Assembly: GCA_025812035.1 (NCBI GenBank)
Contig: GCA_025812035.1_4719.1
DNA from: a phage
Length of the DNA: 64,000 bases
Reading direction: 5' to 3' (one strand)
This document shows, in pieces, positions 1-64,000 of the stretch (position 1 is its first letter; each line of letters opens with the position of its first letter). Position numbers and translations under genes: made by a program. A model generated the notes under the pieces. The model did no database searches. It saw nothing but the letters and a program-made list of their open reading frames with translations, and was not told the origin of the DNA.

Positions 1-542
1 TGGATACGGTTTGCGGTGTAGTACGGGAAATTGAGACCAGCCATCACAGTGGTCTTCATCATTCCCGCAATATCGCGTGCGCCATCGAGGAGATAGAACG
101 TAACGCTCCCCGTCCAAGCCAATCCGGTTGTTTTCAATTCTACGACGTGCGGGAACGGGTACGTATCTCCTCGCACAATCGGAGAATCGACACAACTATC
201 CTGATCGATAACGATTCCGTACGTTGATTGGATCAGAGGGATAAGGTCATGTGTTGTTTTAACGCCAGCATCGATAGCGAGCTTCGGTTCCATCCCCAAG
301 AAGAAGTCTTGGATAGGAATACGGTCGTACCATACGTAGCTGCTTTCGCGATACAACGCTGGTGTGACTGTTGCTGAAGGTGATACCTTAGCACGAGTAT
401 TTCGGTTATACGCATGGTTTCCGTTTTCAGCAACATCCGTGATATCAAGCGCGTCGAAGTTAAAGTCGAAGTCAGGATTGGCGGCCTGAATAAGCTCGGC
501 GACCAGTACTTTAGGACTTTTGTTTAACAATTTCTGACTCAT
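1..542 (-). CDS. hypothetical protein, N-terminal part only (gene runs off the left edge)
   Basis: ATG at 540-542 (minus) with AAGGAA SD 6 nt upstream, overlapping the stop of the upstream gene; hand translation stays open for >120 codons (MSQKLLNKSPKVLVAELIQAANPDFDF...); absent from ORF track, presumably because edge-truncated. Confidence 0.5.
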   Translation of the reverse strand, partial: MSQKLLNKSPKVLVAELIQAANPDFDFNFDALDITDVAENGNHAYNRNTRAKVSPSATVTPALYRESSYVWYDRIPIQDFFLGMEPKLAIDAGVKTTHDLIPLIQSTYGIVIDQDSCVDSPIVRGDTYPFPHVVELKTTGLAWTGSVTFYLLDGARDIAGMMKTTVMAGLNFPYYTANRI

Positions 543-552
543 TGTTTATTCC

Positions 553-1488
553 TTAGCCTTGTTCTTCAGGAGAACGACCCTGGAGGCTTGCGGTATGTCC
601 GTCGACATTGTAATAGAAAATCAATGGACCACCGACAGCAGTGCAGTAGTTTTCATCCAGACCGATTTCGATACCGTATTGGTAACCAGCTCGTGCTGGA
701 ATGCGCCCGCCTAATTCACCGTTGAAATCCACTCTAGCGTTATACAAGTTGTACGGTGCTGTGTTGTCGTCGAGTACCCAACGATCGGCAGTCATTTCAG
801 CCAGAAGATCGGCGACCATCACATCACTAATAACGGTACCCGTTACCAGCGAAGCCAACAATTCGCCGTAATTAGACGTATCGCGACTGTAACTATAGAT
901 CTCACCGCTAGCACGTACACCTTGCCCGAAGAACTTAAGACCGTCCAGCTCTTTGATCGCGATAATATCATCAAGATTCGGTACACGCGATTTCATCAAG
1001 ATGCGAACGCTCCCCGTCCAAGCCAGACAGTTAGATACGACACGAAGCAACTGCCCGTTAACGGTATCCCAGTTAAGTTCGTCATTGACGATTTCTTCGG
1101 CGGTAAGACCAAGACCGAAACGTTCCTTGATGATAGGCCAGATATCACGCATCTTGGTGGCGTCTGGCGCATCAATAAGAATAGGTGCTACGTTACGCAG
1201 ATATGCACCGATGTTAATACGATCGTAATACAGCGTCGTTGAACCTTCATAATCGTCTAACTCGGTAAGCTTAGCGGTTGCCGTTGCTGTAATCTGGGTG
1301 TCGCGCTCGTAGGCGCTTTGGTTGGTGGTTGGTGTTCCTAAAACCAATAATTCAGGTGTTAGAACATGTTCTCCGTTCTGAGGTGGGTTATCATGGTTGA
1401 TAAGACCATACACGAGATCGGATGAGGGTAAAGAGACGTCGACCGGGTAAAGTTCGGTGTCGTCAATAGTTGTTACCGTATCACTCAC
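553..1488 (-). CDS. hypothetical protein (311 aa)
   Basis: ORF track; GTG start preceded by GAGGAGG SD; same strand as neighbours. Confidence 0.6.
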   Translation of the reverse strand: MSDTVTTIDDTELYPVDVSLPSSDLVYGLINHDNPPQNGEHVLTPELLVLGTPTTNQSAYERDTQITATATAKLTELDDYEGSTTLYYDRINIGAYLRNVAPILIDAPDATKMRDIWPIIKERFGLGLTAEEIVNDELNWDTVNGQLLRVVSNCLAWTGSVRILMKSRVPNLDDIIAIKELDGLKFFGQGVRASGEIYSYSRDTSNYGELLASLVTGTVISDVMVADLLAEMTADRWVLDDNTAPYNLYNARVDFNGELGGRIPARAGYQYGIEIGLDENYCTAVGGPLIFYYNVDGHTASLQGRSPEEQG

Positions 1489-1547
1489 GGTGGCCTCCTC
1501 GCCAGGAAATAGTTAAAAAAGACATTACGATTTGCTGCGCTATCACG

Positions 1548-3959
1548 TTAAGCGTCCTTGGTAGGCAAAGGTTTAACAATCAAACGATTGAGCGTATTCG
1601 ATAAACGCATGCCAATAGGCTTGTACGCAACATGATTCGTTTCACTTAGAACCGCGGATTTGAAACGACCATTCAACTGTTTGTAAATCGGCTCTATCCA
1701 GAGACCCTGAAGATCACGTTTACGGAAACGTTGCTCAAACGGTTTGATTGGGTTTACGGTCAGACCATGCAACGATTCTGATAGCAGACGTTCACGAAGA
1801 TCACGCGGTGCTCTACCTGGGAACGGTGCAAGCCACAACCCGTTGAGCGGGTTTTTACGGAAACGCAACGAGACAGGATCGGTAATAACTTGCGCCCAAT
1901 ATTGCGTACTGAATCGTACGGTTTGAGTATTCTCGTAACCGCTACAATCACACCAGGTTGGTTTTGGAGGCGCTTCCAAACTTTCAACCGCCGATTCACG
2001 CCAGTTCGTCATCGGGTTGTTATCGTGTACGAATTTGATAACTTCCGTAGCCTGGTTATCCGTATCATGAACGCATGCTTGTGCCCAGTCCTCCCACAGT
2101 TCTTCACTACCGCTTACTAAACTCGAACCAAGACGGATGGCAATTTTGTTCAGCGGTTTGATAGGATCGCTGTTGATTGTCTGGATAAAATGGATGGTGT
2201 AACTACTCAATGTCTTGAGCAATTGCAACATTCCGTATTGAATATCCTTAAGGCTGGTGACATCTTCCAAGTCTTGACCGGTGGCCTTTGTGAAGATATC
2301 GAGAGCCAGAATTCCCGCCTCTTCTTGACTGATTGCGTCAAGCTCCCAATCCATCGCTAAGAACCATTCCTTGTAAAGCTGTCCAATACCGAAGTCGACA
2401 CCAACATCCATGTAGAAATTCTCAACGATCGCTTCAGCCATACCTCGAGCTTGATAATGCTCTTGGAGCTGATACATGAATTGATGGCGACGCCAGCCCT
2501 GGTAGATCTCGGTAACGACGTTGAGAAACTCTTCAGTACTGACGACCGGACGCAATGTTACTTGCTTATCTAAACACCACCAGATCAGTTTATCGGGAAT
2601 GATAACAGGATCGGTAATACTGCGGAGATGGTCGAATGTCGGTAACGTTAACACCCGGACATGATTGGCATGTATCTTAGGTACTTCAATCAGCGTCATG
2701 CCCATCGAATAGTTCAGCAAATACAAGAACAGCTTGTAGGCATCTTTCATCGACATCGTCATGGTATCACCCGTCACCGGGTTGGTTGTCGTCAACCGTG
2801 ACTGATACATGCCTATCGCGCTAAGATGGATCCACTCATTCAGCAGGAAATCATACTTAGGATACAATTCACTGTCTGTAAGGTCTTCTGCTTCACTTTC
2901 CAATACCTTGGTCGTTAAGGTATTGTTGTCGTGCATCGACATCTTCTCTATCGTGCGGTTAAGCTCGGTATAATACTCTGCTTCGTTATCCCGCGCTAAA
3001 GGGAACTGTTGCTGCATGACGGTGGTGACCTTACGTCTAACCGTACCGTTGCCGACGATCTCTTGAAGGTTCAGCGGTTTACGCTCCATGTAAACGGTAG
3101 GTTTTAACGTCTGAGGTATCTCGGAAGCGTCTTGTTTGATTGAGAACGCACCGATTGGAATTCCACGATCGGTTAATACCTTTTGAATGAGCTTATCGTA
3201 GTTTTCCGTTCTACCCATGTTTCTTTCAACGTAAGCGATGTTACGATAGAACCAGAGCATCTGGGATTCCGTCATGTATCGCTCGAATCGATCAAGACCC
3301 TGATGGCTTGCCAGATAACTCCAGATATGGAAGCTATGGGCATAATGGGTATGACAGTTTTCCCAACGAATACCTTTTATCATCTCAGGTATTTGTGTGA
3401 ATAGAATGGCGTATAACGCAGGCCAATGAAGCATATCGACGCTTTCATACGCCGGATGTTCCCAACGTCTAAAGTAATCGTCGATTTCCTGCTGTAATCG
3501 CGGGATAAGGTTGGCCTCGCGTGACTCAACCTCTCGTGTATCGTACCAGAGAATCTCATGATTGCGAGCCGCAATTGCTTTCTCGATATCGATGGGGTTA
3601 AGGATACCCAAAATCAACATACGTTGTTCTGGGTACCGCGCAATTAAACGATTGAAATAATCTCCGCCGTACGCGTATTCTCTTGCGGTCATGCGATGCC
3701 GTAGCATGTTTTCCTTGGTGAACTCGATCTCCTCGAGCGTATCCAGGGAATTTACGGTCATCATTGTCTGACAAGGATGATACTCGCCAGCGAGATTCAT
3801 GTAGTATAACCACGTGCGTGGGTCGTCCCCGACGGCCATCTGGTAGACTTCGGAAACCTTGAGGTTTAACCGTTCTGCCGTGATGTCACTTTTAATAATC
3901 AGGGTGTCCGTTAGACGCTGCACGCTTTCCGAATAAAGCTGATAGTCAGTGTTGGACAC
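1548..3959 (-). CDS. hypothetical large protein (~803 aa; track ORF extends to 4028 with a TTG)
   Basis: ORF track 1548..4028; first start with a good SD is the in-frame GTG at 3957-3959 (GGAGGA 6 nt upstream); C-terminal tandem peptide repeat RFRKNPLNGLWLAPF / RFRKRDLQGLWIEPI; no Walker A seen, so not called terminase. Confidence 0.5.
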   Translation of the reverse strand: MSNTDYQLYSESVQRLTDTLIIKSDITAERLNLKVSEVYQMAVGDDPRTWLYYMNLAGEYHPCQTMMTVNSLDTLEEIEFTKENMLRHRMTAREYAYGGDYFNRLIARYPEQRMLILGILNPIDIEKAIAARNHEILWYDTREVESREANLIPRLQQEIDDYFRRWEHPAYESVDMLHWPALYAILFTQIPEMIKGIRWENCHTHYAHSFHIWSYLASHQGLDRFERYMTESQMLWFYRNIAYVERNMGRTENYDKLIQKVLTDRGIPIGAFSIKQDASEIPQTLKPTVYMERKPLNLQEIVGNGTVRRKVTTVMQQQFPLARDNEAEYYTELNRTIEKMSMHDNNTLTTKVLESEAEDLTDSELYPKYDFLLNEWIHLSAIGMYQSRLTTTNPVTGDTMTMSMKDAYKLFLYLLNYSMGMTLIEVPKIHANHVRVLTLPTFDHLRSITDPVIIPDKLIWWCLDKQVTLRPVVSTEEFLNVVTEIYQGWRRHQFMYQLQEHYQARGMAEAIVENFYMDVGVDFGIGQLYKEWFLAMDWELDAISQEEAGILALDIFTKATGQDLEDVTSLKDIQYGMLQLLKTLSSYTIHFIQTINSDPIKPLNKIAIRLGSSLVSGSEELWEDWAQACVHDTDNQATEVIKFVHDNNPMTNWRESAVESLEAPPKPTWCDCSGYENTQTVRFSTQYWAQVITDPVSLRFRKNPLNGLWLAPFPGRAPRDLRERLLSESLHGLTVNPIKPFEQRFRKRDLQGLWIEPIYKQLNGRFKSAVLSETNHVAYKPIGMRLSNTLNRLIVKPLPTKDA

Positions 3960-3986: not shown

Positions 3987-6893
3987 ATGAACGATATAAA
4001 TAAAGGGCGCGTCGCCCTCGAACGTCAAATGAGCAATAATGACGTTGCGAAGGCACTCATGAACAAATTTGTCGCTCCTGCCCCGCAGTCACGTCTTTAT
4101 AATACACGTGAGGCGGAAGGAGGGAACGGTCGTTTCGGGTTAGTTGTTCCCGACCAGATGACGATGAACACGGTTACGCGTGCGACAGCGACAAACATCG
4201 AGGATAATAAAAACATTCTCGAGTTGTTCCCTGAACTTAAACGCGTGATGCAGATCTATGTTGCCGCGTTGACGAACCCTAACGATCTTAAGACGGTCGA
4301 GATGTTTATCGATAGCGAAGATTTCCCCGGCAGAGTCGCAGAAATCGTTCAGCCGATGATCGATACCATCGACACGCATTTTAAGAATATCTATAAAATA
4401 AAGACGCTTATCCCTCGTATCATCGAAGACGTCTTCTTTATCAAGGGTAGTTATAACTTCGTTGTTCTGCCCGAAAGTACGCTCGATCGTGCTATTAACG
4501 GTAACGGCCAACTGAAACTTGAAGAATACGGATTCAGAGATAACCATTTTGCAAGTTGGGGGCTTTTAGGTAACGATAGTCGCAAGCGTCAAGAAAACCA
4601 ACTGCCCGCGACGGTTTCGATGGAAGATTATTTCTCAGGCGTTAACGAAACCTTATCGTACGATCCGGTTGTTCGTATAGACAGCATTAAGTTTACCAAT
4701 ACCCTGCTTCGTGATAAGGATGGTAAATTCATTGAAGCGAAGATCGATATTCCGGATATGGTTACGGTTGTCGATAACCCGGATATCCTCCGCATGCCCA
4801 TTTTGCATCAGCGTCGAGCAGCGACAGCGGTGCAACGTGCGTTACGTGCAAACACATTAGGAGGTAGTGGTCTGGTAACGCTGTCTGGTGATCCGACTCA
4901 AACCGCAAACCGGCGTGAGCTGACGCAAGAACAGGTTAACGAGATCTGGAATAAACTCAACATCCAGCGTCATACCAAGGTATCTCCCGTTTACGCGTTG
5001 GCAACCCCAGATACGCTTGACCGTCAAAGCGTTGGTCACCCCGGCGTGATGCATGTACCGCCTGAGGCATTAGAACCAGTACATGCGCCAGGTGATCCGG
5101 AGAACCATATCGGGTATTTAGTTCAGTTGGATGAGTTTGGTTATCCGGTGCGTTTGGTTGAAGATGCGGCGTATTACAAGCAGTTGGAAGGTCGGTTGTC
5201 GAAGATCACCGCGGATATCGCAGGTACTTCAAGCAATGGCATGGCGAGCGAGATGATTGGTGCGGCCAAGAACATGGTCCAAGGTACGTCATGTAATCAG
5301 GTAGACATGTCGGCCTTCGTATCATCGTACGAATCACTGATGCAACGCTACATCGTTGAACGTATTGTCAACGGTTATCTAGGTAGTGCAGTGGAGATCG
5401 GTGCGACATCATCGTTTTACCTATCGATGCTTGCTCGTAGTCTCGCCCACAAGCAGACTCGTGTTTTGTTTATTCCTCGAGAGATGGTTACATACATCGC
5501 TTATGAATACAACAAATACGGTATCGGCCGTTCGTTGCTTGAAAGCACGAAGATGATCTCGTCACAACGCGCCATGCTCATGGTTCAGGAACTGATGGCG
5601 AAAATCAAGAGTTCGTTGAACTACACAACGCTAAGTGTAATGCTTGAAGACACCGACAGAAACCCGGTCGATACCGTCGAACAAGCGTTACATAGCTTCG
5701 CTCGTGTTTACCAGTCTGGTTTCCCACTGGGTGAAACTAACCCAATGGATATCATCAATGCGTACGAACGAAGCTCGATTCGATTGAAGGTCGAGGGGAA
5801 TAACCCACGTTTCCCGAAATTGAATACCGATGTTAGCGTCGAGCAGCGTAACTATCAGTCCCCTGATAATGAATTGATGGATCGTTACCGTCGTGACCAT
5901 TTCATGGGTCTGGGTGTTTCTCCAGAGATCGTTGATACTTCTTACCAATCTGAATTCGCAGCTTCTGTGATTACAGCTAACGCGATGCAAGAGAAACAGT
6001 TCACGGTTTGTCGTGAGGTTATCGTGAATGGGTTAACCGATCACATCAAGAAGTACACGGCTTACAGTCCTGTACTGCTGACGTCGCTGCGAAACACGGT
6101 TCGTGCGAACATGTCTAAGCTCTCCCAAGCACAATTGAAGCAGCTTTTTGGTAGCGATTTCGAAAACGGTGTCATTCGTAACGTTAACGCTTACCAGGAG
6201 ATCGATGACCAGTCAGCAACGATGGATCTGGATTACTCTAAACCAGAAGTTCAGGAAGTTATTGCCGATGCTTACGTATCCATGTTCTTAAACAGTCTGC
6301 AGGTACGTTTACCGGATAGCAATGCTCGCCGCCTTGAAGATCAGGTGCGGGAATATAATCAGTACAAGGAAGCGATTACCGCACAACTTGATGATTATTT
6401 AACGCCTGATTACGTTATGGGTCTGGGTGGAGTCGATGAAACAACATTGCAGATGATTCGTGCGTGCATTATCGGTACTGCAATGCGTACTTGGGCAAAA
6501 GAGAACAACTTCAATCAGGAGTTAGCGGATCTCTTCAGTCTCGATGATAAGAAGAATGCCGTGCAAGATTGGAAACGTGCATCCATGGAACATATCGAAA
6601 TCATGGGTAAATGCATGGGTGATTTTGCACTGTATATTCAGAATCTGACGAAGAAGATTGAAGAGAAGATGGGAGATCAAGCGCAGGACGGTAGCGTTTC
6701 ATCTGATGGCTCTTGGTCGTCTGATTCAAGTAGCGATACAGGTTCTTCTGATGACTTCGGTGGTGATGATTTCGGGGATACCGATTTCGATACCGAAACG
6801 GTGGAGGAAACCTCAACAGAGGAGACAACTACGTCTGAGGATACGACTACCGACACAACGTCGGAAGACGAGACTTCAGGTGATATTGTCTAA
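3987..6893 (+). CDS. hypothetical large protein (968 aa) with acidic Ser/Thr/Asp/Glu-rich C-terminal tail
   Basis: ORF track; AAGGAG SD 9 nt upstream of ATG; last ~75 residues are low-complexity (SSDGSWSSDSSSDTGSSDDFGGDDFGDTDFDTETVEETSTEETTTSEDTTTDTTSEDETSGD). Confidence 0.65.
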   Translation: MNDINKGRVALERQMSNNDVAKALMNKFVAPAPQSRLYNTREAEGGNGRFGLVVPDQMTMNTVTRATATNIEDNKNILELFPELKRVMQIYVAALTNPNDLKTVEMFIDSEDFPGRVAEIVQPMIDTIDTHFKNIYKIKTLIPRIIEDVFFIKGSYNFVVLPESTLDRAINGNGQLKLEEYGFRDNHFASWGLLGNDSRKRQENQLPATVSMEDYFSGVNETLSYDPVVRIDSIKFTNTLLRDKDGKFIEAKIDIPDMVTVVDNPDILRMPILHQRRAATAVQRALRANTLGGSGLVTLSGDPTQTANRRELTQEQVNEIWNKLNIQRHTKVSPVYALATPDTLDRQSVGHPGVMHVPPEALEPVHAPGDPENHIGYLVQLDEFGYPVRLVEDAAYYKQLEGRLSKITADIAGTSSNGMASEMIGAAKNMVQGTSCNQVDMSAFVSSYESLMQRYIVERIVNGYLGSAVEIGATSSFYLSMLARSLAHKQTRVLFIPREMVTYIAYEYNKYGIGRSLLESTKMISSQRAMLMVQELMAKIKSSLNYTTLSVMLEDTDRNPVDTVEQALHSFARVYQSGFPLGETNPMDIINAYERSSIRLKVEGNNPRFPKLNTDVSVEQRNYQSPDNELMDRYRRDHFMGLGVSPEIVDTSYQSEFAASVITANAMQEKQFTVCREVIVNGLTDHIKKYTAYSPVLLTSLRNTVRANMSKLSQAQLKQLFGSDFENGVIRNVNAYQEIDDQSATMDLDYSKPEVQEVIADAYVSMFLNSLQVRLPDSNARRLEDQVREYNQYKEAITAQLDDYLTPDYVMGLGGVDETTLQMIRACIIGTAMRTWAKENNFNQELADLFSLDDKKNAVQDWKRASMEHIEIMGKCMGDFALYIQNLTKKIEEKMGDQAQDGSVSSDGSWSSDSSSDTGSSDDFGGDDFGDTDFDTETVEETSTEETTTSEDTTTDTTSEDETSGDIV

Positions 6894-7313: not shown

Positions 7314-9857
7314 TTACTGCTCTTCACGTTCCAACAGATACTCGGAAGCGGTAATACCATTTACCGTACGTACTGCTTTCAGACGAGTATCATCGTTCAG
7401 AATCACGGTAACAGACTGTAGACCTTTTACTTTGGTCTCGAAGGTCTTGAACACCTGATCCAGCATACGAGCAATGCTTGGGTTGGTTGCAGCTGACGCG
7501 TGAGTGTAACCGCTCTGGTTCAGATTCAGAATCTTGGCATTGGTCGGTACGCGAACAACAACATGCGGACGCATAGCGAACACGCTGTGATTGAACCAGT
7601 AAGCATCGTTGCTGTCTTCGTCAGTGACGATGTCTGGATTAACACGCATATCCTCAACAGCCGCATCAGCCAAACGACGTTCGATTTCGTCAGCGTCCAG
7701 AGAGCCATCTTTCTCCAGTTCTGCACGATACTCACTCATGGCAACCAAATGACGTTCACGATTCACCGTAGATTTTTCGTGAGCGACTTTCAGGTAGTCA
7801 TGCATGTTGTACAGTTCTGCCATAGACAGACGAATGTTCCACTGACCATCACCGTCACGGTTGCAGTAGAGACACTTCAGCATGTTGACCCAGGTATGGT
7901 AGCAATTGGAGAACTCATCTTCAATAAACTTCTGATCCATTTTAAGATCGTGAATCAGCCAGCCGGACAGTTCTCCGATATCATCAACGAAGCTAGAGAT
8001 GGTGGTTTCAGAGAAGTCCTTCGGTACGATACGTTTGATCAACTTGTTGACGTCTTTGGTCATGCTATCGTTCAGGAAATGCCAAATACGCAGAGGAATG
8101 ACATCTCGATACTGTTGCATGATCTGACGATAAGCCGCAATATCGTCGCTACGACCTTTATCAATAGACAACGCATCCAGGAATTCATGGATAGCATCCA
8201 GCTCTTTGTCGGTATAAGTTCCCAGATAGGAATTGACCGTGGCAAGGAATGCTAATGCGTCGTTTTGGTTGACGTCGGTGTTGGTCTGCTGGATGATCGC
8301 CACAGCAGCTTTGGTTTCAGCATCCTCAACGCTCGATGCTGCGATCGCATCGGTAACGGTAAACAGTTTCATTTCGCGTTGTTCGCCGACAACGATTGGT
8401 TCACGTTGAACCGGTTTGTTGAGGCTAACGCGGACAACCTCCGATTGCGCGATGCGGTCCAGTTTTATCATTTCCTGCTCTGCCATACGACGAGCGGTTG
8501 GATCTGATTCAAGTTCGATGTATTCCACTTCTTCCTCCGTGAGGGATGTAATGTCAACAATGGTTTCATGAAGAATTCCGTTTTCGTCGATACGTGCTCG
8601 ACGAGCGAAGTGCCTGAAGTCATACAACGTTGGCCAGCGACAATTAGGTGCGTAGTCTTTGGCCTTCAGACGCATCTGCATAAATTCTTCATGTTGAACA
8701 ACACGACCGTAACGCTTAGCATCTTCGGTCGCATCAATGGGATTAACGGTCTTTGTTGCCGTAGCGGAACGAACCGTACGGATGGGTTCCGGTTTAGTCT
8801 GCACAGGTTCAGGTTGAACAGGTTTCTGCTGTCCAGACTTAACATGCCATTCGGGTTCTTCGTACCGTTCAGCGAACTGTTCGGCTGCTGCAAAGATATC
8901 GTTGATACCACCGACGTCTCCTTCGGGATTCGTCGAGTAGATACGTGGTTGTGGTGCCTCGTAACGCGGCGCTGTGGTAGCAGGTGCATCATCAACGATA
9001 GGATCATCACCAACATCATACAAACGGTTGAACGCACAATCCTTCGAATCAATGTACGATGGAGCTTGTGGTTGAACAACCGTCGGTCGAGGTTGTGCGC
9101 CGTATCCTGGCATCGTTGGAGCCATACCACGCATAACCGCTGGACTCGGTTGGTATTGCGGTTGCGGATAGGTTCCATATGCAGGTTGCTGCGGTTGACC
9201 GTACCCGGTGCTGGCCATCGCATTTGCTTGTGGTCCGCGATACGTCATTCCCATCTGCATCACCTGTTGCTTCAAACCACGCGATTTTTGCGCGATTTGC
9301 GCCAGGCTCCCGTTTTTATTGAGCTGTGTATACTTATTCGCGGCTTCCGGGTTAACGCGTGATAACTCAATCGCACGATAATACTCCGGGTATTGATTAG
9401 GTTCAAAGAGCCACGTTACAAGATGATACAGCGCAACCGTGCTCACGGCAGCAGTGACGATCTGGTCGGTGGACGCATTCTGCGGCATCGGGTTGATGTA
9501 AGAGAATACGTTCCAGCAGCAATCTTCAACAAGCGATTCCATCATCATATCGCTATTGGTATAACGCGCGACGAAATCGGTTTGTATCTTATCTTGCTGT
9601 GCGAAGTCTTTCAAGACGTTAAAGATAGCCTGACGGATTTTGACGATCGTTGCTTCTTGGGTGATGAAGTTATAGTTCTGCTGATACGCCGGTTGCTGGT
9701 ATTGTGGTGGTTGATAGGTGTTATTCGGGTATGGGTTGTACGGCGGTTGCTGGTATTGTTGCTGACGTACCTGCTCCGCGGCATAATTAATCGTGCTCGC
9801 ATAAGGGTTTTCGCTATAGCCCATTTGCTGGTACATGTTGTTACTACCATTATACAT
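7314..9857 (-). CDS. hypothetical protein (847 aa) with Gln/Tyr/Pro/Asn-rich low-complexity regions
   Basis: ORF track; AAAGGAT SD; N-terminal ~70 aa (MYNGSNNMYQQMGYSENPY...QQQYQQPPYNPYPNNTYQPPQYQQPAYQQNYNF) and internal GYGQPQQPAYGTYPQPQYQPSP segment. Confidence 0.65.
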   Translation of the reverse strand: MYNGSNNMYQQMGYSENPYASTINYAAEQVRQQQYQQPPYNPYPNNTYQPPQYQQPAYQQNYNFITQEATIVKIRQAIFNVLKDFAQQDKIQTDFVARYTNSDMMMESLVEDCCWNVFSYINPMPQNASTDQIVTAAVSTVALYHLVTWLFEPNQYPEYYRAIELSRVNPEAANKYTQLNKNGSLAQIAQKSRGLKQQVMQMGMTYRGPQANAMASTGYGQPQQPAYGTYPQPQYQPSPAVMRGMAPTMPGYGAQPRPTVVQPQAPSYIDSKDCAFNRLYDVGDDPIVDDAPATTAPRYEAPQPRIYSTNPEGDVGGINDIFAAAEQFAERYEEPEWHVKSGQQKPVQPEPVQTKPEPIRTVRSATATKTVNPIDATEDAKRYGRVVQHEEFMQMRLKAKDYAPNCRWPTLYDFRHFARRARIDENGILHETIVDITSLTEEEVEYIELESDPTARRMAEQEMIKLDRIAQSEVVRVSLNKPVQREPIVVGEQREMKLFTVTDAIAASSVEDAETKAAVAIIQQTNTDVNQNDALAFLATVNSYLGTYTDKELDAIHEFLDALSIDKGRSDDIAAYRQIMQQYRDVIPLRIWHFLNDSMTKDVNKLIKRIVPKDFSETTISSFVDDIGELSGWLIHDLKMDQKFIEDEFSNCYHTWVNMLKCLYCNRDGDGQWNIRLSMAELYNMHDYLKVAHEKSTVNRERHLVAMSEYRAELEKDGSLDADEIERRLADAAVEDMRVNPDIVTDEDSNDAYWFNHSVFAMRPHVVVRVPTNAKILNLNQSGYTHASAATNPSIARMLDQVFKTFETKVKGLQSVTVILNDDTRLKAVRTVNGITASEYLLEREEQ

Positions 9858-55158: not shown

Positions 55159-55162
55159 TTCT

Positions 55163-55615
55163 TTATTCCTTGTTGGCTTCTTCAATGTACTTGGTGTCGT
55201 AAGACAAATGCTGAATTAATTTTCTAGGCTCGATGAAAATACGACACGTGATAAACACATCAGGGTTGTATTGTTCCACGCAACGTCCGAAGGCTTGTTT
55301 TGCGGCGTGACGCATCAACACTAATTCCCGATCGTTCATCTCATCATCAAATTCGATATGTATCGTGATTTTATCGGGAAATAAATAGATAGAGTAATCG
55401 CTACCAATACCGTCGTCGTCAAAGCGATAATCGTTGTGGTAATGGTGAAGTTTACCTTCGTGTACCGTCTGGTACCACCCGACGATACTATCAAGACCCA
55501 TACCCAGGCGTCCGAATGCCTGATTAATAATATCCTCGACGACGGATGCGGGGGTGGGACCATTGAACAATCTATCCAGACGTTTTTTCATCGATTTGTC
55601 TGTTTTCACATTCAT
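55163..55615 (-). CDS. small protein, member 3 of tandem paralog array (~150 aa)
   Basis: ORF track 55163..55666; ATG 55613-55615 with AGGAA SD avoids the hairpin at ~55646-55681; C-terminal FITCRIFIEP…. Confidence 0.5.
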   Translation of the reverse strand: MNVKTDKSMKKRLDRLFNGPTPASVVEDIINQAFGRLGMGLDSIVGWYQTVHEGKLHHYHNDYRFDDDGIGSDYSIYLFPDKITIHIEFDDEMNDRELVLMRHAAKQAFGRCVEQYNPDVFITCRIFIEPRKLIQHLSYDTKYIEEANKE

Positions 55616-55645
55616 CGATTCTGTTCCTGTTATAGTCAGTATAAA

Positions 55646-55681
55646 CCCTCCTTCCCTAGCCATCAAGGCCGGGGAAGGGGG
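55646..55681 (-). terminator. imperfect hairpin inside the small-paralog array
   Basis: CCCTCCTTCCC…GGGGAAGGGGG with mismatches; lies between members 3 and 4. Confidence 0.4.
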
Positions 55682-55693
55682 TATGTGCGTTAT

Positions 55694-56101
55694 TTATGCT
55701 TCGTTGTCAACTAAAGGTGCTGTATGTTTCTTACCGTCGATGTGCCAAATGAGACACGCTGGATAGAGGTTAACATCTAGAGAGCAGGGGAGGCCATATT
55801 TCTCTTCCAGTTCGTAAAGACGTTCAGCGAGCTGCTTCCGTCCATCATCATCGTTTTGCAATGCATGATGGCCGAATCGTTGCTGGTCGTTCTTTACATA
55901 CGCCTCGAAAAGTATATGTTGTTGAAAAACGATGATTCTTACACCTTCAAGTATGTCGGTGTCGAGCATGCGAGAAAAACTCATACATGCCTCTGATGCC
56001 GAAGACGAGTTTTCCTCTTTAACAATATCAATCATCGCGGTGATACGTGGCTGATCGATGTTGTCGTTAACCGCTTTAACGATGGAATCTACAATACTCA
56101 T
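55694..56101 (-). CDS. small protein, member 4 of tandem paralog array (135 aa)
   Basis: ORF track; N-terminal helix SIVDSIVKAVNDNI; weak C-terminal signature LPCSLDVNLYP. Confidence 0.5.
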   Translation of the reverse strand: MSIVDSIVKAVNDNIDQPRITAMIDIVKEENSSSASEACMSFSRMLDTDILEGVRIIVFQQHILFEAYVKNDQQRFGHHALQNDDDGRKQLAERLYELEEKYGLPCSLDVNLYPACLIWHIDGKKHTAPLVDNEA

Positions 56102-56138
56102 TTTTTATCCTTAATGTTACCGGTTTAGAAATATTATT

Positions 56139-56903
56139 TTATTTACTGTTATCCTTATCGACAGTTGTTACCCATGATGGGAAAGCCGGATGGAAACAGA
56201 GCGTGAACGTAACCTTCGCATCGTATTTAAGCGCGTGGTTCACTAACCGGGTATCGAACGTTTTCCTTAGCCCGTCATCATCATTATCGATGATAGTCAT
56301 ATCCCTTAATATCCCAAGCACGTTAACGCCATCGGGTGTCTGGGTTACGACGACTCGTCGTAACGGCCCATGTGTATAGTCACGTACGTATCCTTTCTTC
56401 GGGTCCGATACTCTGTTTAACGCATCGCGATTTTCGATGAGTTCATCAGCAATACGATAGATGTGTTCCCTTGCTTTATCGTGATCGTATTCTGCTAATA
56501 GTTCCTTTGTATCGAACGATATCGCGTTACTATCATTCGATTCAGAAGGGAAATAAAGAACTAAACGAACAGGGTATTCGTATTGATCCGTTCTCGTTTC
56601 GAAAACACCGGCTAAACATGGTTTATATGCCTTTGCGTCGACGTTGTCTAAACACGGATGCAATAATGCGTGAATAACGACACCATCGTCAGTTAAACCG
56701 AATTCCAGAAATTGTGTTTCATCGGTATCTGTTACCGTTTTCTGAAGATACGCTTTACCGTTAACGATATCGGTATCCCATATATCGTCGTTTAATGATT
56801 CTTCAAACTTATCGAATATAAGGTTTACGGTATCGATGAGTCCATCGATACGCCACTGCTGATTGCTCTCAATTAATTGCTGAACCTTATCTTTGATAGA
56901 CAT
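56139..56903 (-). CDS. member 5 of tandem paralog array, apparently duplicated-domain form (254 aa)
   Basis: ORF track; two signature-like segments (EYPVRLVLYFPSESNDSNAISFD and KVTFTLCFHP). Confidence 0.55.
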   Translation of the reverse strand: MSIKDKVQQLIESNQQWRIDGLIDTVNLIFDKFEESLNDDIWDTDIVNGKAYLQKTVTDTDETQFLEFGLTDDGVVIHALLHPCLDNVDAKAYKPCLAGVFETRTDQYEYPVRLVLYFPSESNDSNAISFDTKELLAEYDHDKAREHIYRIADELIENRDALNRVSDPKKGYVRDYTHGPLRRVVVTQTPDGVNVLGILRDMTIIDNDDDGLRKTFDTRLVNHALKYDAKVTFTLCFHPAFPSWVTTVDKDNSK

Positions 56904-56905
56904 GA

Positions 56906-57364
56906 TTACTCCTTAGTTCCTTCTTCGTCAGGTGTATACGCCAATGTGAAGAATTCATAACCATCAACAAACTTGAATGTTACTGTAATAGGGAAATCGC
57001 ACGGCATGACGGATTTCATAAATGCATCATTAGCAACCTCAGATAACCGACGTATGACATCTCCCCTGCTGGCGTTGAATGGTAGTTTTATGTCGATAAG
57101 GATGCGGTGCTTGTAAACATAGAAAACAACGGTACTGTCAAGATAAATACCAGAGAGCTGCGTTGTTGGGATGCGTTCCACAATGGAAAAATACGTCCCA
57201 TCAGTATCGCTATTTCCCACCGACCATTTATCGGATTTGCGTAGATTTTCTTTGAGGGATTCGACACTTCGAGTGATGACCTCAACGATAGGCGTGACGT
57301 AAGCGTCTTTATGCGTGTCGAAAAGTTCGTTAACAGTAGACTTGAATGAATATTCTGTTGTCAT
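56906..57364 (-). CDS. small acidic protein, member 6 of tandem paralog array (152 aa)
   Basis: ORF track; signature CDFPITVTFKFVDGYEFFTLAYTPDEEG. Confidence 0.6.
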   Translation of the reverse strand: MTTEYSFKSTVNELFDTHKDAYVTPIVEVITRSVESLKENLRKSDKWSVGNSDTDGTYFSIVERIPTTQLSGIYLDSTVVFYVYKHRILIDIKLPFNASRGDVIRRLSEVANDAFMKSVMPCDFPITVTFKFVDGYEFFTLAYTPDEEGTKE

Positions 57365-57825
57365 TATTCTACCTCTTTCTTCATCTTCATCGGAACAGAG
57401 AGTGTTGTTACCTCTGTTCCATTATCCGGCTCATATTCCAATGTAACGAGATCGTAACCATCCGATAATTCATAATCGATCGCTAGGGGGAACGAGATAC
57501 CGTGCGACTTTATGCATTTACCAAATGTCTCATTGGCCGTATACATTAGAAGTTGCTTTGCGGCAAGCCCGTTTACGCTGAAAGGTAATCGTGCTGTCGC
57601 AGCGATACGATTATTGTAAACTCTGATATCGGTGATATCTACAATCGTAGCATTGCTATGTTGTAATGTTGGAACGGATAGGCTGTAGAAGTAAGGTTTA
57701 GATCCGGAATCGGGTTCATTAAATAATTCCCAACATCCGTCCTCCTGCAATCTTACCTCGAGTATTTCAAAGCTTTTAATTATCGATTCTACCAGCTGCT
57801 CACCGTAAGAATCCCATGTCGTCAT
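57364..57825 (-). CDS. small acidic protein, member 7 of tandem paralog array (~153 aa)
   Basis: ORF track 57364..57879; ATG 57823-57825 with GAAGGTG SD; signature ISFPLAIDYELSDGYDLVTLEYEPDNG. Confidence 0.6.
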   Translation of the reverse strand: MTTWDSYGEQLVESIIKSFEILEVRLQEDGCWELFNEPDSGSKPYFYSLSVPTLQHSNATIVDITDIRVYNNRIAATARLPFSVNGLAAKQLLMYTANETFGKCIKSHGISFPLAIDYELSDGYDLVTLEYEPDNGTEVTTLSVPMKMKKEVE

Positions 57826-57894
57826 TTTAGCACCTTCGATACCTTTTAACCGACACGTGCCCCACTTAACAAGGGACACGAAGTCGTTGATTAA

Positions 57895-58389
57895 TTACTC
57901 TTCTGTGTTTTCATTGTCAGGATCGTAGTGGAATTCGAACAGCCCTGAACCGTCATGCCCATTGATTGTTAGTATAACGGGCATATCGAATCCTCGGACG
58001 CGCGAATGAAAACACTGTGCTAATTTTAGTTTGGCGTATGCCGCTATTTCATTGATGGCAATACACGACTCACCTGTTATACTCAGTATAACGTCGATAC
58101 TAACAATGTTGTTGTGCAACGCAAAACGCCAACGATCGATATGATTATTATCTTTAGCGGTTGTCTCGTTTACGAGATAGACTTTATCGTCAGCCGACAA
58201 AGCGGGGCTCCAGCAACGTTCGTTTATTAAATTCGCCTGGAGTTTTAGTATCGTCTGATCAATAATATCCCAACACGTAACCAGCGTGGCGTCAGACACT
58301 GAATTGAGAAGGGCGAGCACTTTATCCTTTATTTTAAGTGCTTCCGCAGGACGCCCGCAAATACCATGCATTTCAACTTTCTTATTCAT
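57895..58389 (-). CDS. small acidic protein, member 8 of tandem paralog array (~164 aa)
   Basis: ORF track 57895..58395 (GTG); ATG 58387-58389 with AAAAGAGG SD; signature FDMPVILTINGHDGSGLFEFHYDPDNENTEE. Confidence 0.6.
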   Translation of the reverse strand: MNKKVEMHGICGRPAEALKIKDKVLALLNSVSDATLVTCWDIIDQTILKLQANLINERCWSPALSADDKVYLVNETTAKDNNHIDRWRFALHNNIVSIDVILSITGESCIAINEIAAYAKLKLAQCFHSRVRGFDMPVILTINGHDGSGLFEFHYDPDNENTEE

Positions 58390-58432
58390 ATTCACCTCTT
58401 TTTTAATCTAAATGTTAGTTGGGATAGGGCGA

Positions 58433-59065
58433 TCACATGCTTTCTAACATATTGACGATCATGGAACCCATACCGAAACTCGGTCTCTCGCCGATGTACT
58501 CAGCAAGCTGACGATGAACGTCTTTTGGATTCCCTTCTTCACCGTCGGCATCGATGTAAACCGAAAAAGAAAATGAATCGGAATCCACGCTGATAACCAG
58601 ACGACGTTCATTGCGTTCCTTGAGTGTATCGACAATAGCTGCTTTCAGTACTGTGATCGCGTTCATCGCGTGCAAGATATCTCCATCAGGTCTCGCCAGA
58701 TCGATCTTTTCTTTCAGGTCGATATTGATGTTGGTTACAATTGGATTGAGATCGACTTTGACATAATCGTTAGGGGACACGCGAATAATTGCACGATCGA
58801 TATCTGAACCGTAAAAGTCGATACGTGGCTTTAACACTTCTTTGTTTGGATCCATGTTTTCATCCATACCCGCCTGTAGAAAGCGTTCTACGTTATCCAG
58901 TTCACGATAAACTGACGCTTCGATTTCTTTCAGATAGTTGGCTGCGGTTTCATGTTCTTTGCGTAGCTCGTCTTTAAGGAGCTGTACGGTGACTTCACTG
59001 GAACGAATGCTGTTCGCGAATTGTGTAATTGACATATCGAATTCCTTAAGTTCTCTTGAGTTCAA
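58433..59065 (-). CDS. hypothetical protein (210 aa), possibly a distant member of the array
   Basis: ORF track; C-terminal LVISVDSDSFSFSVYIDADGEEG loosely fits the family pattern. Confidence 0.5.
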   Translation of the reverse strand: MNSRELKEFDMSITQFANSIRSSEVTVQLLKDELRKEHETAANYLKEIEASVYRELDNVERFLQAGMDENMDPNKEVLKPRIDFYGSDIDRAIIRVSPNDYVKVDLNPIVTNINIDLKEKIDLARPDGDILHAMNAITVLKAAIVDTLKERNERRLVISVDSDSFSFSVYIDADGEEGNPKDVHRQLAEYIGERPSFGMGSMIVNMLESM

Positions 59066-60353: not shown

Positions 60354-60992
60354 TTATGCAAAGCGACGCATGTAACCTGCCAGGTAGTTACGTGTATCGA
60401 AGTAGGCAATTTCAGGAATTGCGATATTAAGGTCGATAGCACGGATTTCAACCTGGCGACGGCTTTCATCATAGATCGCATCCATCAGACGCAGTACTGT
60501 CAGGAAAGCCATGCGGGTATGGTAGTCCAGCGGCATGTTATCGATGCCACGATACAGGTAACGATTTGCGTTGAATGCCCCTTCGCTGTTATCTTTCCAG
60601 ATCTTCAGAATATCAGCAAAGGCGGTGCGGAAAACCTCAGGATTATCCACATCCAGTAACGCACGGAAAGCAGACATTAAAGATCGCTGATGACGGATCA
60701 AGGACTGCGGCGTTTGCGGCATGGTCGGACCCATTTCTTCCGCATATTTCTGGAACGGGGCAACCAGGGTTGCGGCGCGAGAAGCAACGATAGAAATAGC
60801 AGGCGATTCATTCACCGCTGGTTTCGCAGGCTTTTCTTCAACTGCGGTTTCCTTCTTCTCAACAACGACCGTTTTCGGTTGTGCTACAACGTTGTTGGTC
60901 GGAGCAGCAGCCGCACCATTTTCCACGGCGGTCTCTACTGCTGTAATCTTTTCGTCCATTTGTGCGGAACGTTGGTCTTTATTCTTGCTCAT
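60354..60992 (-). CDS. hypothetical protein (212 aa), highly expressed by codon usage, Lys/Glu/Ala/Pro-rich N-terminal region
   Basis: ORF track; AAAGGAAA SD; codon bias similar to the capsid candidate. Confidence 0.6.
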   Translation of the reverse strand: MSKNKDQRSAQMDEKITAVETAVENGAAAAPTNNVVAQPKTVVVEKKETAVEEKPAKPAVNESPAISIVASRAATLVAPFQKYAEEMGPTMPQTPQSLIRHQRSLMSAFRALLDVDNPEVFRTAFADILKIWKDNSEGAFNANRYLYRGIDNMPLDYHTRMAFLTVLRLMDAIYDESRRQVEIRAIDLNIAIPEIAYFDTRNYLAGYMRRFA

Positions 60993-61017: not shown

Positions 61018-62319
61018 TTAACTAATATAAAGTTCAGGATCGTAAGGCGCTAACGATACACTGGCGTTATGCATTGCTTTCATCATAGTGTTCATGAAAA
61101 CGTTGTTTACACCGGTGATCTCTGCCCCGATCGCGTCTGGGGTTGGAGCCATCGCGTTACCGCAACAGGTAGCACAGTATTCCAACGGACCCGCTTTACA
61201 GCGCTGAGGATCGCGTAACTTGATGGTCTGTCCTTCCAAGGAAGCAAGTAAGTCAGCATCAATAAGTTTAAGCGCTGCACCGTCGATCATATAACGTCCG
61301 ACAAGCAGCTTATCTTTGATGTGATCACGGTTCACCGTGAACAGGATATGTTCTTGGGTACCGCAGTCGTCCATCGTGATTTTAAGGTTCTGTGTCGCAC
61401 GTTGTGATTCCTTAGCTGTTTGTCCAGCTAAAGCGGTCAACGCACCACGTGAGAACGAACCAGCACGCGCACTGTTGTTATACTCTGCCCAATGGTCGAC
61501 ACGCATCCCTTCAGCCAGGCTGTGTGTGATAACGTTACGTTTACCAGGGTCAACGAAGTCAGCTTCAACCCCCATCATGATGTGCGTTTTCTTTCGAGTA
61601 TTACCGAAACTCTTGCCAGGGTTAATATAGAACCCTTCCGACTCATCACCCTTAAAGGATTCCTTATCCATTTTGGTTAGCGTGGCCTCGAGTTTGATCA
61701 GTTCTTCAGGTGTGAACTTACCTTCTTCTTGTAGACGTGCTAACTCTTTATCACGATAGGCGATAATATCGTCATCGACCGTTAACGCTTTATCGCTCAT
61801 CGATGGAACAATTAAACGGTTGATGGCGGTTAATGCGCTGATATTGTTGGTGAATTTCTTCACCTCGCTCGCATACAACGGACCAATCGGACGTTCGTTA
61901 GGATCAGGTATCCCCTCTTCAGGATCATCCGCTACGCGTGGTGCAATCAATGATTCCAATGTACCGCTGGTCAACCGTCCCGCCTGGTATTCAATCTGAA
62001 TCCCGAAAGCGTCATAAAGGACGTACATATTGAACAACGCTTCACCGAAGGTTGTGGTGGTTGTGTTCTTAACCGACGGTAGATCACCAGGCGCAAGCTC
62101 CAACGGATCCCAGAAATTCAACAAGGGTTTTGTTGGCTCTGTTTCCCATTGATGTTCTTCACCGTCGATGGTAACCGTAACGATGTTTCCCTGACGACGT
62201 AATTTAGGCTGATACTTCTCAGCGCCACCTTCCGTAAAAGCAAATGCGTCGTTAATCCACTCAAGATAACGGTAGTGCCCTTCACGCAACGCGTAAAGGA
62301 AATAATCACGAGGTGTCAT
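61018..62319 (-). CDS. multisubunit RNA polymerase beta' subunit fragment (region F bridge helix to start of trigger loop)
   Basis: ORF track; AAAGGAG SD. Segment order and wording parallel E. coli beta': PDG…ARxG…ALTALAGQTAK (bridge helix, cf. GARKGLADTALKTANSG), TMDDCGTQEHIL (cf. TEDDCGTHEGIM), RCKAGPLEYCATCCGN (cf. CDTDFGVCAHCYGR Zn motif), PDAIGAEITG…TMMKAMH (cf. [25 protein letters not shown]). No NADFDGD, and the protein ends just after the trigger-loop start. Confidence 0.5.
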   Translation of the reverse strand: MTPRDYFLYALREGHYRYLEWINDAFAFTEGGAEKYQPKLRRQGNIVTVTIDGEEHQWETEPTKPLLNFWDPLELAPGDLPSVKNTTTTTFGEALFNMYVLYDAFGIQIEYQAGRLTSGTLESLIAPRVADDPEEGIPDPNERPIGPLYASEVKKFTNNISALTAINRLIVPSMSDKALTVDDDIIAYRDKELARLQEEGKFTPEELIKLEATLTKMDKESFKGDESEGFYINPGKSFGNTRKKTHIMMGVEADFVDPGKRNVITHSLAEGMRVDHWAEYNNSARAGSFSRGALTALAGQTAKESQRATQNLKITMDDCGTQEHILFTVNRDHIKDKLLVGRYMIDGAALKLIDADLLASLEGQTIKLRDPQRCKAGPLEYCATCCGNAMAPTPDAIGAEITGVNNVFMNTMMKAMHNASVSLAPYDPELYIS

Positions 62320-62332: not shown

Positions 62333-63205
62333 TTAAACGTGGGTCAGGTCACCGTGACGTGAAACGAACTCTGATAACGCTCGGATTGCTTCTTTGGATT
62401 CTTCAGCCATCGGGAAGTTGACGGTAACAAGTTCTCGTAAGACAGGAATGATTTCATTGTCTTCGAGATCGGAAGCTAAGGCGAACGCGATCAGTTCTTG
62501 GGCGTATGCGTACGGTTGCTGGCGTAAAGCAGCAAGCTGATTCCGACACTGCGCTATCAGCAGGTCCAGCGGAACCGCTATCGTACCCCCTTCGTCAACA
62601 TATTGGCTGAATACCGGTGGGAATGCATCACTGATTACACGAATTCGTCTGCGAATGCGATCAGGGATCTGGATGTTTTCTTCATCGGCTACGTTTTCGC
62701 TATCTTTCTCCAGCTTCTTGGTCAGCACCTGCTGGATGCGTGGAAGCAGACTTGAATGCACGAAACTGATCAATGGGGTTACGTTAACAGCGTCGACGCC
62801 GTAAATATGTCGTGCGCATTCTGCTAACGCTTCAGCTGCGGTGTAGTCTTCGTCTTCAACGATAGCGAGTAGAAAATCGGTATCGTCATGTGTTTCCAGG
62901 TCTAATAACGTAGACGCTAACGCATGAAGATACTTCAGGCTATCCAGAGATAGTTGCCCTTCGTTAACTCGGATCCCGAAGGCAAGCAATTGTTGTTTAT
63001 AAAGTTCGATACACCCGTTTGTTAAAATGACATCTAATTCGTTTAAATCGTACTGTTCTCCAGCACCTGACAACATTGTACTACAAAACGTTTCCAGTTG
63101 CTCGCATTTAAAATCTTGGTATAAACGATACATGCAGTGCTGTAACAGCGTACGCCTTGTTTCAGGGATTTTACCTTCTAACAAAGCCAAGACGGAATCA
63201 ATCAT
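62333..63205 (-). CDS. hypothetical protein (~291 aa)
   Basis: ORF track 62333..63211 (GTG); ATG 63203-63205 with GGAG SD. Confidence 0.55.
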   Translation of the reverse strand: MIDSVLALLEGKIPETRRTLLQHCMYRLYQDFKCEQLETFCSTMLSGAGEQYDLNELDVILTNGCIELYKQQLLAFGIRVNEGQLSLDSLKYLHALASTLLDLETHDDTDFLLAIVEDEDYTAAEALAECARHIYGVDAVNVTPLISFVHSSLLPRIQQVLTKKLEKDSENVADEENIQIPDRIRRRIRVISDAFPPVFSQYVDEGGTIAVPLDLLIAQCRNQLAALRQQPYAYAQELIAFALASDLEDNEIIPVLRELVTVNFPMAEESKEAIRALSEFVSRHGDLTHV

Positions 63206-63301
63206 ATCCACTCCGATGCGGTAAATGTCTACTAGCTCTCATAATCTATTGAAGAAACTACCGGCTGACGCCAACTTAGATCAATCAGGAGTAACCATCC
63301 C

Positions 63302-63775
63302 ATGCCAGTTTCATCCAAACCAAGAAAAAAATCAGTAGGAAAACCTAAAGCTCAGGAAACAACAGCAATTCGTTGGGACGAGTTACGCGAACCTATCGAA
63401 AACTGCGAATTGTTATTGAGCACCCTGGGTGCGGCTATTTACCAAGCAACGCAACCCTGCCGTTTACGATTAACCCAAAACAAGCGCGATGAGTTCGTTG
63501 CGTTATCAACAAGCACGAATAAAGATCTTACCGAACTTCAAACCGAATTGACGACGATCAAGAACTCCGTCACGCCGATGTACGGTAAAGAAGTTGATGA
63601 ACAAAGTATTCTGTTACAGTACAACTACGGGATGTCGTTAATGAACATCCTGGAACGCGCATCCGATATTCTACGTCCTGACGTCGCACGCCTGAGTCAA
63701 CTGCGTGTTGAAGGGATGGAGAACCAGATCCGATTCGCTAACAGTGTTAAATCTCAAGGAGCCACCGAAGCATGA
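63302..63775 (+). CDS. hypothetical protein (157 aa)
   Basis: ORF track; AGGAGTAA SD 7 nt upstream. Confidence 0.6.
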   Translation: MPVSSKPRKKSVGKPKAQETTAIRWDELREPIENCELLLSTLGAAIYQATQPCRLRLTQNKRDEFVALSTSTNKDLTELQTELTTIKNSVTPMYGKEVDEQSILLQYNYGMSLMNILERASDILRPDVARLSQLRVEGMENQIRFANSVKSQGATEA

Positions 63776-64000
63776 GCGAACAAGAAAAAGAAATTGTGAC
63801 GAGCCAGGAAGATAAGGTTGAGGTAACGGCTCAACCTGTTCATGAAGGTAATACTTCTACGCAGCAGGAAAGTAAAGAAGTTGCTGACGCTCCAGAAGCA
63901 ACCCATGAAGAAGAACCGTCACATCCGCCGCTGATCGATTTCTCAAAAGCAACGATACGTTTCCAGTGCGAAGATATTCGCCCTAAGAGCCCAAAGAAAA
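63772..64000 (+). CDS. hypothetical protein, N-terminal part only (runs off the right edge)
   Basis: ATG overlapping the upstream stop (ATGA); open to the window end (MSEQEKEIVTSQEDKVEVTAQPVHEG…); absent from track because edge-truncated. Confidence 0.5.
   Translation, partial: MSEQEKEIVTSQEDKVEVTAQPVHEGNTSTQQESKEVADAPEATHEEEPSHPPLIDFSKATIRFQCEDIRPKSPKK

Follow-up and report, generated by a model that had tools for sequence, protein, structure and literature searches.

The 64,000-nucleotide stretch analysed here (hereafter the window; contig GCA_025812035.1_4719.1 of GenBank assembly GCA_025812035.1) is almost certainly one contiguous part of a Goslar-like chimallivirus genome, that is, the genome of a phiKZ-like, nucleus-forming jumbo myovirus of enterobacteria (Chimalliviridae, Goslarvirus). 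When a 20-kb piece of it was compared by megablast with 50,697 phage records only Escherichia phage vB_EcoM_Goslar was matched, at 93.7% identity, and local BLASTN against positions 28000-98000 of Goslar (NC_048170) placed the whole window colinear with Goslar 29919-91077 in the same gene order. Weighted identity is ~92% over 57.9 kb aligned, with ~90% of the window aligning in blocks of 85-94%. An earlier note, made from the sequence alone, had read the overall content as that of a phiKZ-like jumbo phage, and this colinearity, together with 15 proteins that are colinear with phiKZ, bears that reading out: no best match fell to unrelated phages or bacteria, and the 740-aa protein taken for a capsid candidate proved to be neither a sheath nor a non-structural protein.

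The comparison with phiKZ and Goslar proteins that the earlier note had proposed was positive on both sides. By tblastn the 15 window proteins match the 75-133 kb region of phiKZ (NC_004629) in strictly conserved but inverted order, the genes concerned being gp80, 82, 84, 87, 88, 89, 91, 98, 99, 101, 118, 120, 123, 128 and 129; protein identity is only 24-37%, and the hosts differ. Core-gene blocks, a concept taken here from Prichard et al. 2023, are thus found in conserved order both against this part of phiKZ and, through full colinearity, against Goslar, and matches to PHROG, Pfam and solved structures agree with such blocks, covering head, neck, part of the baseplate, internal proteins, RNA polymerases (RNAPs), the helicase and one half of the DNA polymerase. 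Other marks of the chimalliviruses are also present, namely a phiKZ-type capsid protein with its vertex-binding complex (PF25620; PF25618; PDB matches to Goslar gp42, gp59, gp65 and gp66), PF12699 internal head proteins together with DUF7941, and two split multisubunit RNAPs, with one subunit of each (virion and non-virion) within the window. For 15 proteins of the window the solved Goslar virion offers a near-identical partner, and no protein placed structurally in this Goslar region lacks one in the window. Solved virion structures allow an annotation of nearly every gene; gene identities, gene order and the correspondence to the solved Goslar and phiKZ virion proteins are all directly observed. 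Two departures from phiKZ lie in the head proteins, where gp65 of the Goslar type far exceeds phiKZ gp86 in length, and where a single PF12699 protein dominates in Goslar whereas phiKZ has several abundant ones.

In the NCBI taxonomy Goslarvirus belongs to the Chimalliviridae; the species of Goslar is Goslarvirus goslar. Taking the product of identity and aligned fraction (~92% x ~90%), the window is ~83% similar to Goslar, which places it within the genus at a cut-off of roughly 70% or more genome-wide nucleotide similarity to the type species, and outside the species at the cut-off of at least 95% usual for phage species; both comparisons cover only about a quarter of the genome, and the species call is provisional. 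We weighed whether the window could simply be another isolate of Goslarvirus goslar. Its capsid protein and the major head protein of Goslar share 98.6% identity, gene order is unchanged throughout, and public assemblies hold a population of close variants, some of which match the window at 98.7-99.2% identity in the neighbourhood of the capsid gene; against this stand the ~92% aligned identity, the ~10% of the window that does not align, a product that is well under 95%, and four insertions or deletions (indels) that hit whole genes or parts of genes. A strain variant is therefore improbable; the phage is not Goslar itself and, as judged from the sequence, most likely represents a separate species of Goslarvirus. 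Its content is essentially known biology, and probably a new species within a well-known genus is what has been found.

The 740-aa protein, which the earlier note had put forward as a strongly codon-biased capsid candidate, is a phiKZ-type major capsid protein. It matches Pfam PF25620 (PhiKZ_MCP) with 724 bits (E 1.5e-217) as well as phrog_3231 (major head protein), and it matches the solved chains 11bt and 36za. Chain 36za_A0 begins at residue 158, and the N-terminal 157 residues, which are not visible in the models, are probably removed by proteolysis (Basu et al. 2026). Its gene has the strongest codon bias in the window (effective number of codons, Nc, 29.2), followed by the gene for the Goslar gp58 homologue at 35577-36905 (Nc 30.7), with all others at 43-56 (at least 42.8). 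Mass spectrometry of Goslar gave about 2150 copies of gp58 per virion (Basu et al. 2026). Since the two genes of extreme bias are those of the two highest-copy virion proteins in these Goslar data, codon bias tracks protein copy number. Codon bias alone picks out the gp58 homologue, an abundant injected internal protein. We also observed a 636-aa, ATG-initiated open reading frame (ORF) at 13460-15370 (+) antisense to the capsid gene, which most likely is no gene but a shadow of the strong capsid codon bias. The several proteins of 900-1200 aa remarked on earlier were likewise found and can be named: portal (968 aa), baseplate wedge (997 aa), vertex-binding (934 aa), PF12699 family (1121 aa) and the gp64 homologue (1201 aa), in addition to proteins of 826 and 847 aa.

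As to transcription, the earlier note had recognised a split multisubunit RNAP beta' fragment but had overlooked a second RNAP piece. The fragment it did recognise stands: the 433-aa protein can be aligned with residues 758-824 of E. coli beta', which form the bridge helix, and it shares 32% identity (E 2.4e-44) with phiKZ gp80, one of the four virion RNAP polypeptides (PMC8287921). The overlooked piece is the product of 9892-11691, which matches phiKZ gp123 (tblastn E 5.7e-51), the beta-like subunit of the non-virion RNAP (PMC8287921). Its Goslar counterpart is labelled 'polymerase' in RefSeq, and we considered whether 9892-11691 could be the second half of the DNA polymerase; this was rejected, given the match to phiKZ gp123 and the presence of the DNA polymerase motifs B and C on Goslar gp244. 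Two RefSeq labels in Goslar can accordingly be corrected, with 'polymerase' gp039 becoming the beta-like subunit of the non-virion RNAP and 'RNA polymerase beta subunit' gp078 the C-terminal half of beta'. The logic of two RNAPs is the same as in phiKZ. Split RNAP subunits by themselves do not prove nucleus formation (Prichard et al.), and the 433-aa fragment also weakly matches AR9 RNAP chain 7s00_D, so that one might think of a jumbo phage of the AR9/PBS1 group, with split multisubunit RNAPs and no nucleus. We give this almost no credence: the DNA is ~92% identical to that of Goslar, which has been shown to form a nucleus, the window carries DUF7941, reported only from chimalliviruses, and it encodes capsid and vertex-binding proteins of phiKZ type.

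Goslar has been demonstrated experimentally to build both a nucleus and a PhuZ vortex (bioRxiv 10.1101/2021.10.25.465362; PMC12908238). The earlier note had seen neither chimallin nor PhuZ in the window and had ascribed a nucleus-forming lifestyle to the phage from its lineage only. Their absence is confirmed; it carries no weight because in Goslar the nuclear shell protein (171003-172898) and PhuZ (180856-181836) both lie far outside the stretch equivalent to the window. The earlier caution was appropriate, and the lifestyle is now made firmer by ~92% identity to a phage that forms a nucleus. We strongly infer that this genome, like that of Goslar, encodes chimallin. The chimallin cluster at 90% identity has 249 members, found on many Goslar-like contigs of 235-260 kb, and the exact capsid protein of the window is encoded on contigs 234-239 kb long, above the 200 kb that marks a jumbo phage. 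Sites resembling sigma-70 promoters number 57 in the window, fewer than the 98 +/- 8.7 of dinucleotide shuffles, and a 20-kb segment shows the same direction; such depletion fits transcription that is independent of the host polymerase.

Several points weigh against assigning the window to a nucleus-forming Goslarvirus species of its own. The window holds no gene for chimallin, PhuZ, the remaining RNAP subunits, terminase or tail sheath, and what is said of nucleus formation and genome size in this phage is projected from its near relatives. Four chimallin variants that were looked up shared no contig with the capsid look-up, and none came from run SRR22004794, the source of a contig that is identical to part of the window (see below). 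The promoter shuffles ignore coding constraints, so the depletion is only supportive, and about a quarter of the genome is all that underlies the separation at species level.

The replication genes hold one of the differences from Goslar. The 583-aa product of 52339-54090 matches phrog_3011 over its full length (E 3.6e-178) and phiKZ gp82 (E 2.9e-63), and it carries Exo I (FDIET, 154), Exo II (NIAFD, 253), Exo III (YxxxD, 386) and motif A (DLDISSSYPN, 499) of a family B DNA polymerase (PolB), with a stop 75 aa after the last of these; the Pfam exonuclease match reaches 16.3 bits, under the cut-off of 23. Motifs B and C were not found in any frame of the window, and in Goslar they are carried by gp244 at 174314-176467 (KLDNNSLSG and SDTDS, respectively). 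The split PolB described earlier is thereby confirmed, with its exonuclease and motif A half within the window, and it is split as in phiKZ, where gp82 also ends just after motif A. The window gene is uninterrupted, whereas that of Goslar is split inside motif A, between FVAD and LDISSSYPN, by a 1.78-kb group I intron (Goslar 81186-82966; window equivalent 53834-53853) that carries the HNH/NUMOD1 endonuclease gp069. The core of this intron scores 44.7 bits with Rfam RF00028 (E 1.5e-9), just below the gathering score of 50. Goslar gp068 ends in RLFVAD and a stop, and the frame resumes after the intron with LDISSSYPNG to reach the same C-terminus as the window protein; the window gene is therefore the intron-free allele. 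It follows for RefSeq that Goslar gp068 (499 aa) is a PolB exon cut short, the intron and exon 2 being unannotated. Elsewhere in Goslar (169269-169645; 168235-169245) RefSeq does annotate another group I intron, with the HNH endonuclease gp186, beside the RNAP subunit gene gp247, so the intron in PolB does not stand alone in that genome. The DnaB-like helicase of the earlier note is likewise real, with a match to PF20307 (divDNAB) at E 5.6e-120 and to phiKZ gp118 at E 1e-60; its ORF is open over 16483-18177 (+), and the 536-aa gene call was taken from related contigs.

The expanded family of propeptide-like virion proteins that had been noted corresponds to the PF12699 internal head cluster, as both paralogy and PF12699 matches attest. 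Homologues of gp55, gp56 and gp57 (31378-32679, 32859-34148 and 34158-35498) are mutual BLASTP paralogues. PF12699 (phiKZ_IP) matches the gp58 homologue with 68 bits, above the Pfam cut-off, and is borderline for the gp57 homologue (26.8 bits) and for the gp54 homologue at 30288-31457 (20.5 bits); the gp53, gp55 and gp56 homologues gave no match to the PF12699 hidden Markov model, and a local profile built from the gp55-57 homologues found no further members of the six-gene cluster. Structure predictions by Basu et al. 2026 give all six gp53-58 proteins a common fold, and the family membership of gp53, gp55 and gp56 rests on these predictions. Homologues of Goslar gp60 and gp61 lie nearby; injection experiments on Goslar have established that these two proteins travel inside the virion and are delivered to the host cell (Basu et al. 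2026).

A second difference from Goslar is found in the gp64 homologue, which has 1201 aa against 930 aa in Goslar. It is built of modules: residues 1-392 are 47% identical to Goslar gp64, residues 393-658 (266 aa) have no counterpart there, and residues 659-1201 are 92% identical; the single contig known to encode the exact 1201-aa protein comes from run SRR22004794. The three-residue motif E-(G/S)-(F/Y) is 3.4-fold enriched in the PF12699 cluster and the gp64/gp65 homologues (15 sites in 5395 residues vs 12 in 14853 elsewhere; Fisher p 0.0016), and in the gp65 homologue it stands just before the first residue modelled in the solved structure. This motif, in a reading made post hoc, is likely a site of the head protease, cut after the E. 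Cuts of this kind are predicted at ELVQE/GF, VLE/GF, VVE/GF, FE/SF and TME/GY, the slash marking the putative cut, and another close to residues 151-157 of the capsid protein. The module borders in the gp64 homologue coincide with ELVQE/GF (387) and TME/GY (660), which suggests that head-internal proteins may evolve by shuffling cassettes bounded by cleavage sites.

Two further regions set the window apart from Goslar. Opposite window 19668-21446, where two paralogous accessory genes lie, Goslar has nothing but the 62-aa gp047, in which 33 residues are shared with one of the two; beyond this 33-aa remnant no homologue was found among the 50,697 phage records, and none in IMG/VR. Homologues were found only in read-level and isolate assemblies, where variants of 55-97% identity occur in read-level assemblies and on a 244-kb contig filed under Shigella sonnei. 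For the ORF of 326 aa the real protein starts 26 codons downstream, and an AlphaFold2 model of the extra 300-aa protein, from a 7-sequence alignment, was unusable (mean pLDDT, the predicted local distance difference test score, 36). The other region is an array of nine small genes, at least four of which (149-171 aa) are mutual paralogues, with no Pfam matches over 54189-59065. It is longer than the Goslar gp70-gp74 array and partly unalignable with it, and has the look of a rapidly evolving accessory region next to the gene for PolB.

Contigs related to the window are widespread in public data. Logan contig SRR22004794_238 is 100% identical to window 43819-55675, and an identical capsid protein occurs in GCA_043942905.1 (DAZVSN010000008.1, 238.6 kb), in ERZ27275843 k141_20014 (238.3 kb) and in GCA_011494745.1. 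Around the capsid gene the DNA is 98.7-99.2% identical in some Goslar-like public assemblies, of which short stretches were read. Complete Goslar-like genomes are common as contigs of 234-260 kb in ENA metagenome assemblies, and such contigs are also present among NCBI assemblies of isolates that bear the labels E. coli, Salmonella enterica (in several serovars) or Shigella sonnei. Goslar-like proteins filed under E. coli, Salmonella and Shigella isolates, and the exact capsid protein in the NCBI assemblies GCA_011494745.1 and GCA_043942905.1, would fit a prophage, or some other element, integrated or plasmid-like, in the genome of an enterobacterium. That such an element is at hand is nevertheless exceedingly improbable, since the contigs in isolate assemblies are separate and genome-sized (234-260 kb) and not embedded in a chromosome, the nearest described relative is a virulent phage, and a Pfam scan of 50 of the 51 complete ORFs in the window (all except 63302-63775) found no integrase, partition, plasmid-replication or host-like gene, in agreement with what the earlier note had said of integrase and host-like genes. 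The contigs in isolate assemblies could reflect a carrier state of an integrase-less phage, or contamination of cultures. Within the window a tRNA scan found no tRNA, no Rfam family reached its gathering threshold, and a tandem-repeat scan gave nothing of note.

The features on which the annotation is based are collected in Table 1. Structural roles in the Goslar virion (portal, capsid, vertex-binding complex, decorator, neck and baseplate) and the DUF7941 assignment of Goslar gp33 follow Basu et al. 2026. For the upper baseplate wedge protein the start was set by the 803-aa solved chain, the ORF being open to 4028.

Table 1. Features of the 64-kb window, in window coordinates, with the evidence for each.
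Feature	Coordinates	Strand	Evidence
Goslar gp33 homologue, N-terminal part (DUF7941 virion protein), cut by window edge	1..542	-	colinear with Goslar gp033, open frame
DUF7941 virion protein (Goslar gp34 homologue)	553..1488	-	PF25613, E 1.2e-62
Upper baseplate wedge protein (Goslar gp35, phiKZ gp128 homologue)	1548..3959	-	PDB 11lx_Bh, 9xqs_C PHIKZ128; phiKZ tblastn E 3e-108
Portal protein, 968 aa (Goslar gp36, phiKZ gp129 homologue)	3987..6893	+	PDB 11ed_J 'Portal Protein gp36' 2125 bits; 9xpe_M PHIKZ129
847-aa protein (Goslar gp38 homologue; position of phiKZ gp124)	7314..9857	-	synteny
Non-virion RNAP beta-like N-terminal subunit (phiKZ gp123 homologue)	9892..11691	-	PDB 7ogp_E PHIKZ123 E 3.7e-38; phrog_2943
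Major capsid protein, phiKZ type, 740 aa (Goslar gp41)	13535..15757	-	PF25620, PDB 11bt, 36za_A0
Vertex-binding complex protein (Goslar gp42, phiKZ gp119 homologue)	15907..16527	-	PDB 11fg_E
Divergent DnaB-like replicative helicase, 536 aa (phiKZ gp118 homologue)	16567..18177	+	PF20307, phrog_3213
Two paralogous accessory genes (~300 and ~260-290 aa)	19684..21547	-	indel vs Goslar; paralogy E 1e-20
Baseplate spike cap protein (Goslar gp48, phiKZ gp101 homologue)	21602..22969	-	PDB 36za_qp, 9xph_B PHIKZ101
Neck stopper / tail adaptor protein (Goslar gp50, phiKZ gp99 homologue)	23574..24890	-	PDB 11ed_g; PF24215, PF24214
Tail terminator (Goslar gp51, phiKZ gp98 homologue)	24877..26442	-	PDB 11lc_D, 9xps_w PHIKZ098
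Six internal head / injected proteins, PF12699 family (Goslar gp53-gp58 homologues)	26907..36905	-	BLASTP paralogy, PF12699
Vertex-binding complex protein (Goslar gp59, phiKZ gp91 homologue)	36970..37500	-	PF25618 PhiKZ_gp91 E 3.4e-46; PDB 11fg_F
Goslar gp60, gp61 homologues (phiKZ gp90/gp89)	37497..39545	-	synteny; phiKZ gp89 E 9e-28
Tail tube initiator (Goslar gp62, phiKZ gp88 homologue)	39580..40785	+	PDB 11lx_AJ; PF23971 E 1.7e-79
Baseplate wedge protein, 997 aa (Goslar gp63, phiKZ gp87 homologue)	40789..43782	+	PDB 11lx_Aq, 9xqs_A PHIKZ087; phiKZ E 1e-177
1201-aa protein (Goslar gp64 homologue)	43845..47450	-	alignment to Goslar gp64
Vertex-binding complex proteins (Goslar gp65, gp66; phiKZ gp86/gp85 homologues)	47532..50773	-	PDB 11fg_Cj, 11fg_C
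N-terminal half of split family B DNA polymerase, 583 aa (phiKZ gp82 homologue)	52339..54090	+	phrog_3011, motifs, phiKZ match
Array of nine small genes (135-254 aa)	54189..59065	-	ORFs, BLASTP paralogy
Capsid decorator protein (Goslar gp77 homologue)	60354..60992	-	PDB 11fg_A 'Capsid Decorator gp77'
Virion RNAP beta' C-terminal half, 433 aa, bridge-helix region (phiKZ gp80 homologue)	61018..62319	-	alignments, phrog_2962

Two side observations concern this annotation. The 847-aa gp38 homologue (7314-9857), which had no confident Pfam or PHROG match, contains a long low-complexity stretch rich in Q, P and Y (QQYQQPPYNPYPNNTYQPPQYQQPAYQQNY) and a second P/Q-rich run, and its gene sits between those for the non-virion RNAP subunit and the portal. 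The molecule names in PDB entry 36za do not fit the sequences of several chains (jj, qp, 7, hB, 4, C7 and 1): 'Collar Protein gp126' has the sequence of gp51, 'Tail Tube gp217' that of gp62, and chains named 'Inner-peripheral baseplate spoke gp220' have the sequences of gp48 and gp77. Separate 11xx entries and the preprint support our assignment by sequence over the 36za names.

Placed in the infection cycle described in work on Goslar and phiKZ, the virion would carry its RNAP and the PF12699, gp60 and gp61 proteins and inject them along with the DNA into an early infection vesicle, after which the non-virion RNAP would transcribe later genes, and the helicase and the two-piece PolB would replicate the DNA inside the chimallin shell. 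Head proteins, the capsid protein included, would lose their N-terminal propeptides to a head maturation protease encoded outside the window. A joint reading, in which an undescribed Goslarvirus species combines a PolB gene that is a target for intron homing, cassette shuffling bounded by cleavage sites and an integrase-less carrier state, is possible, though with all its parts taken together we think it rather unlikely. Goslar is already among the best-studied nucleus-forming phages, so the classification itself adds little; it is the differences from Goslar that mark the spots where an otherwise conserved core region tolerates change. If the joint reading is true, the intron-free PolB allele would be the natural target of the HNH endonuclease that sits in the same motif A codons of Goslar, and the two genomes would form a natural pair in which intron homing, or interference competition between co-infecting chimalliviruses, may be studied.

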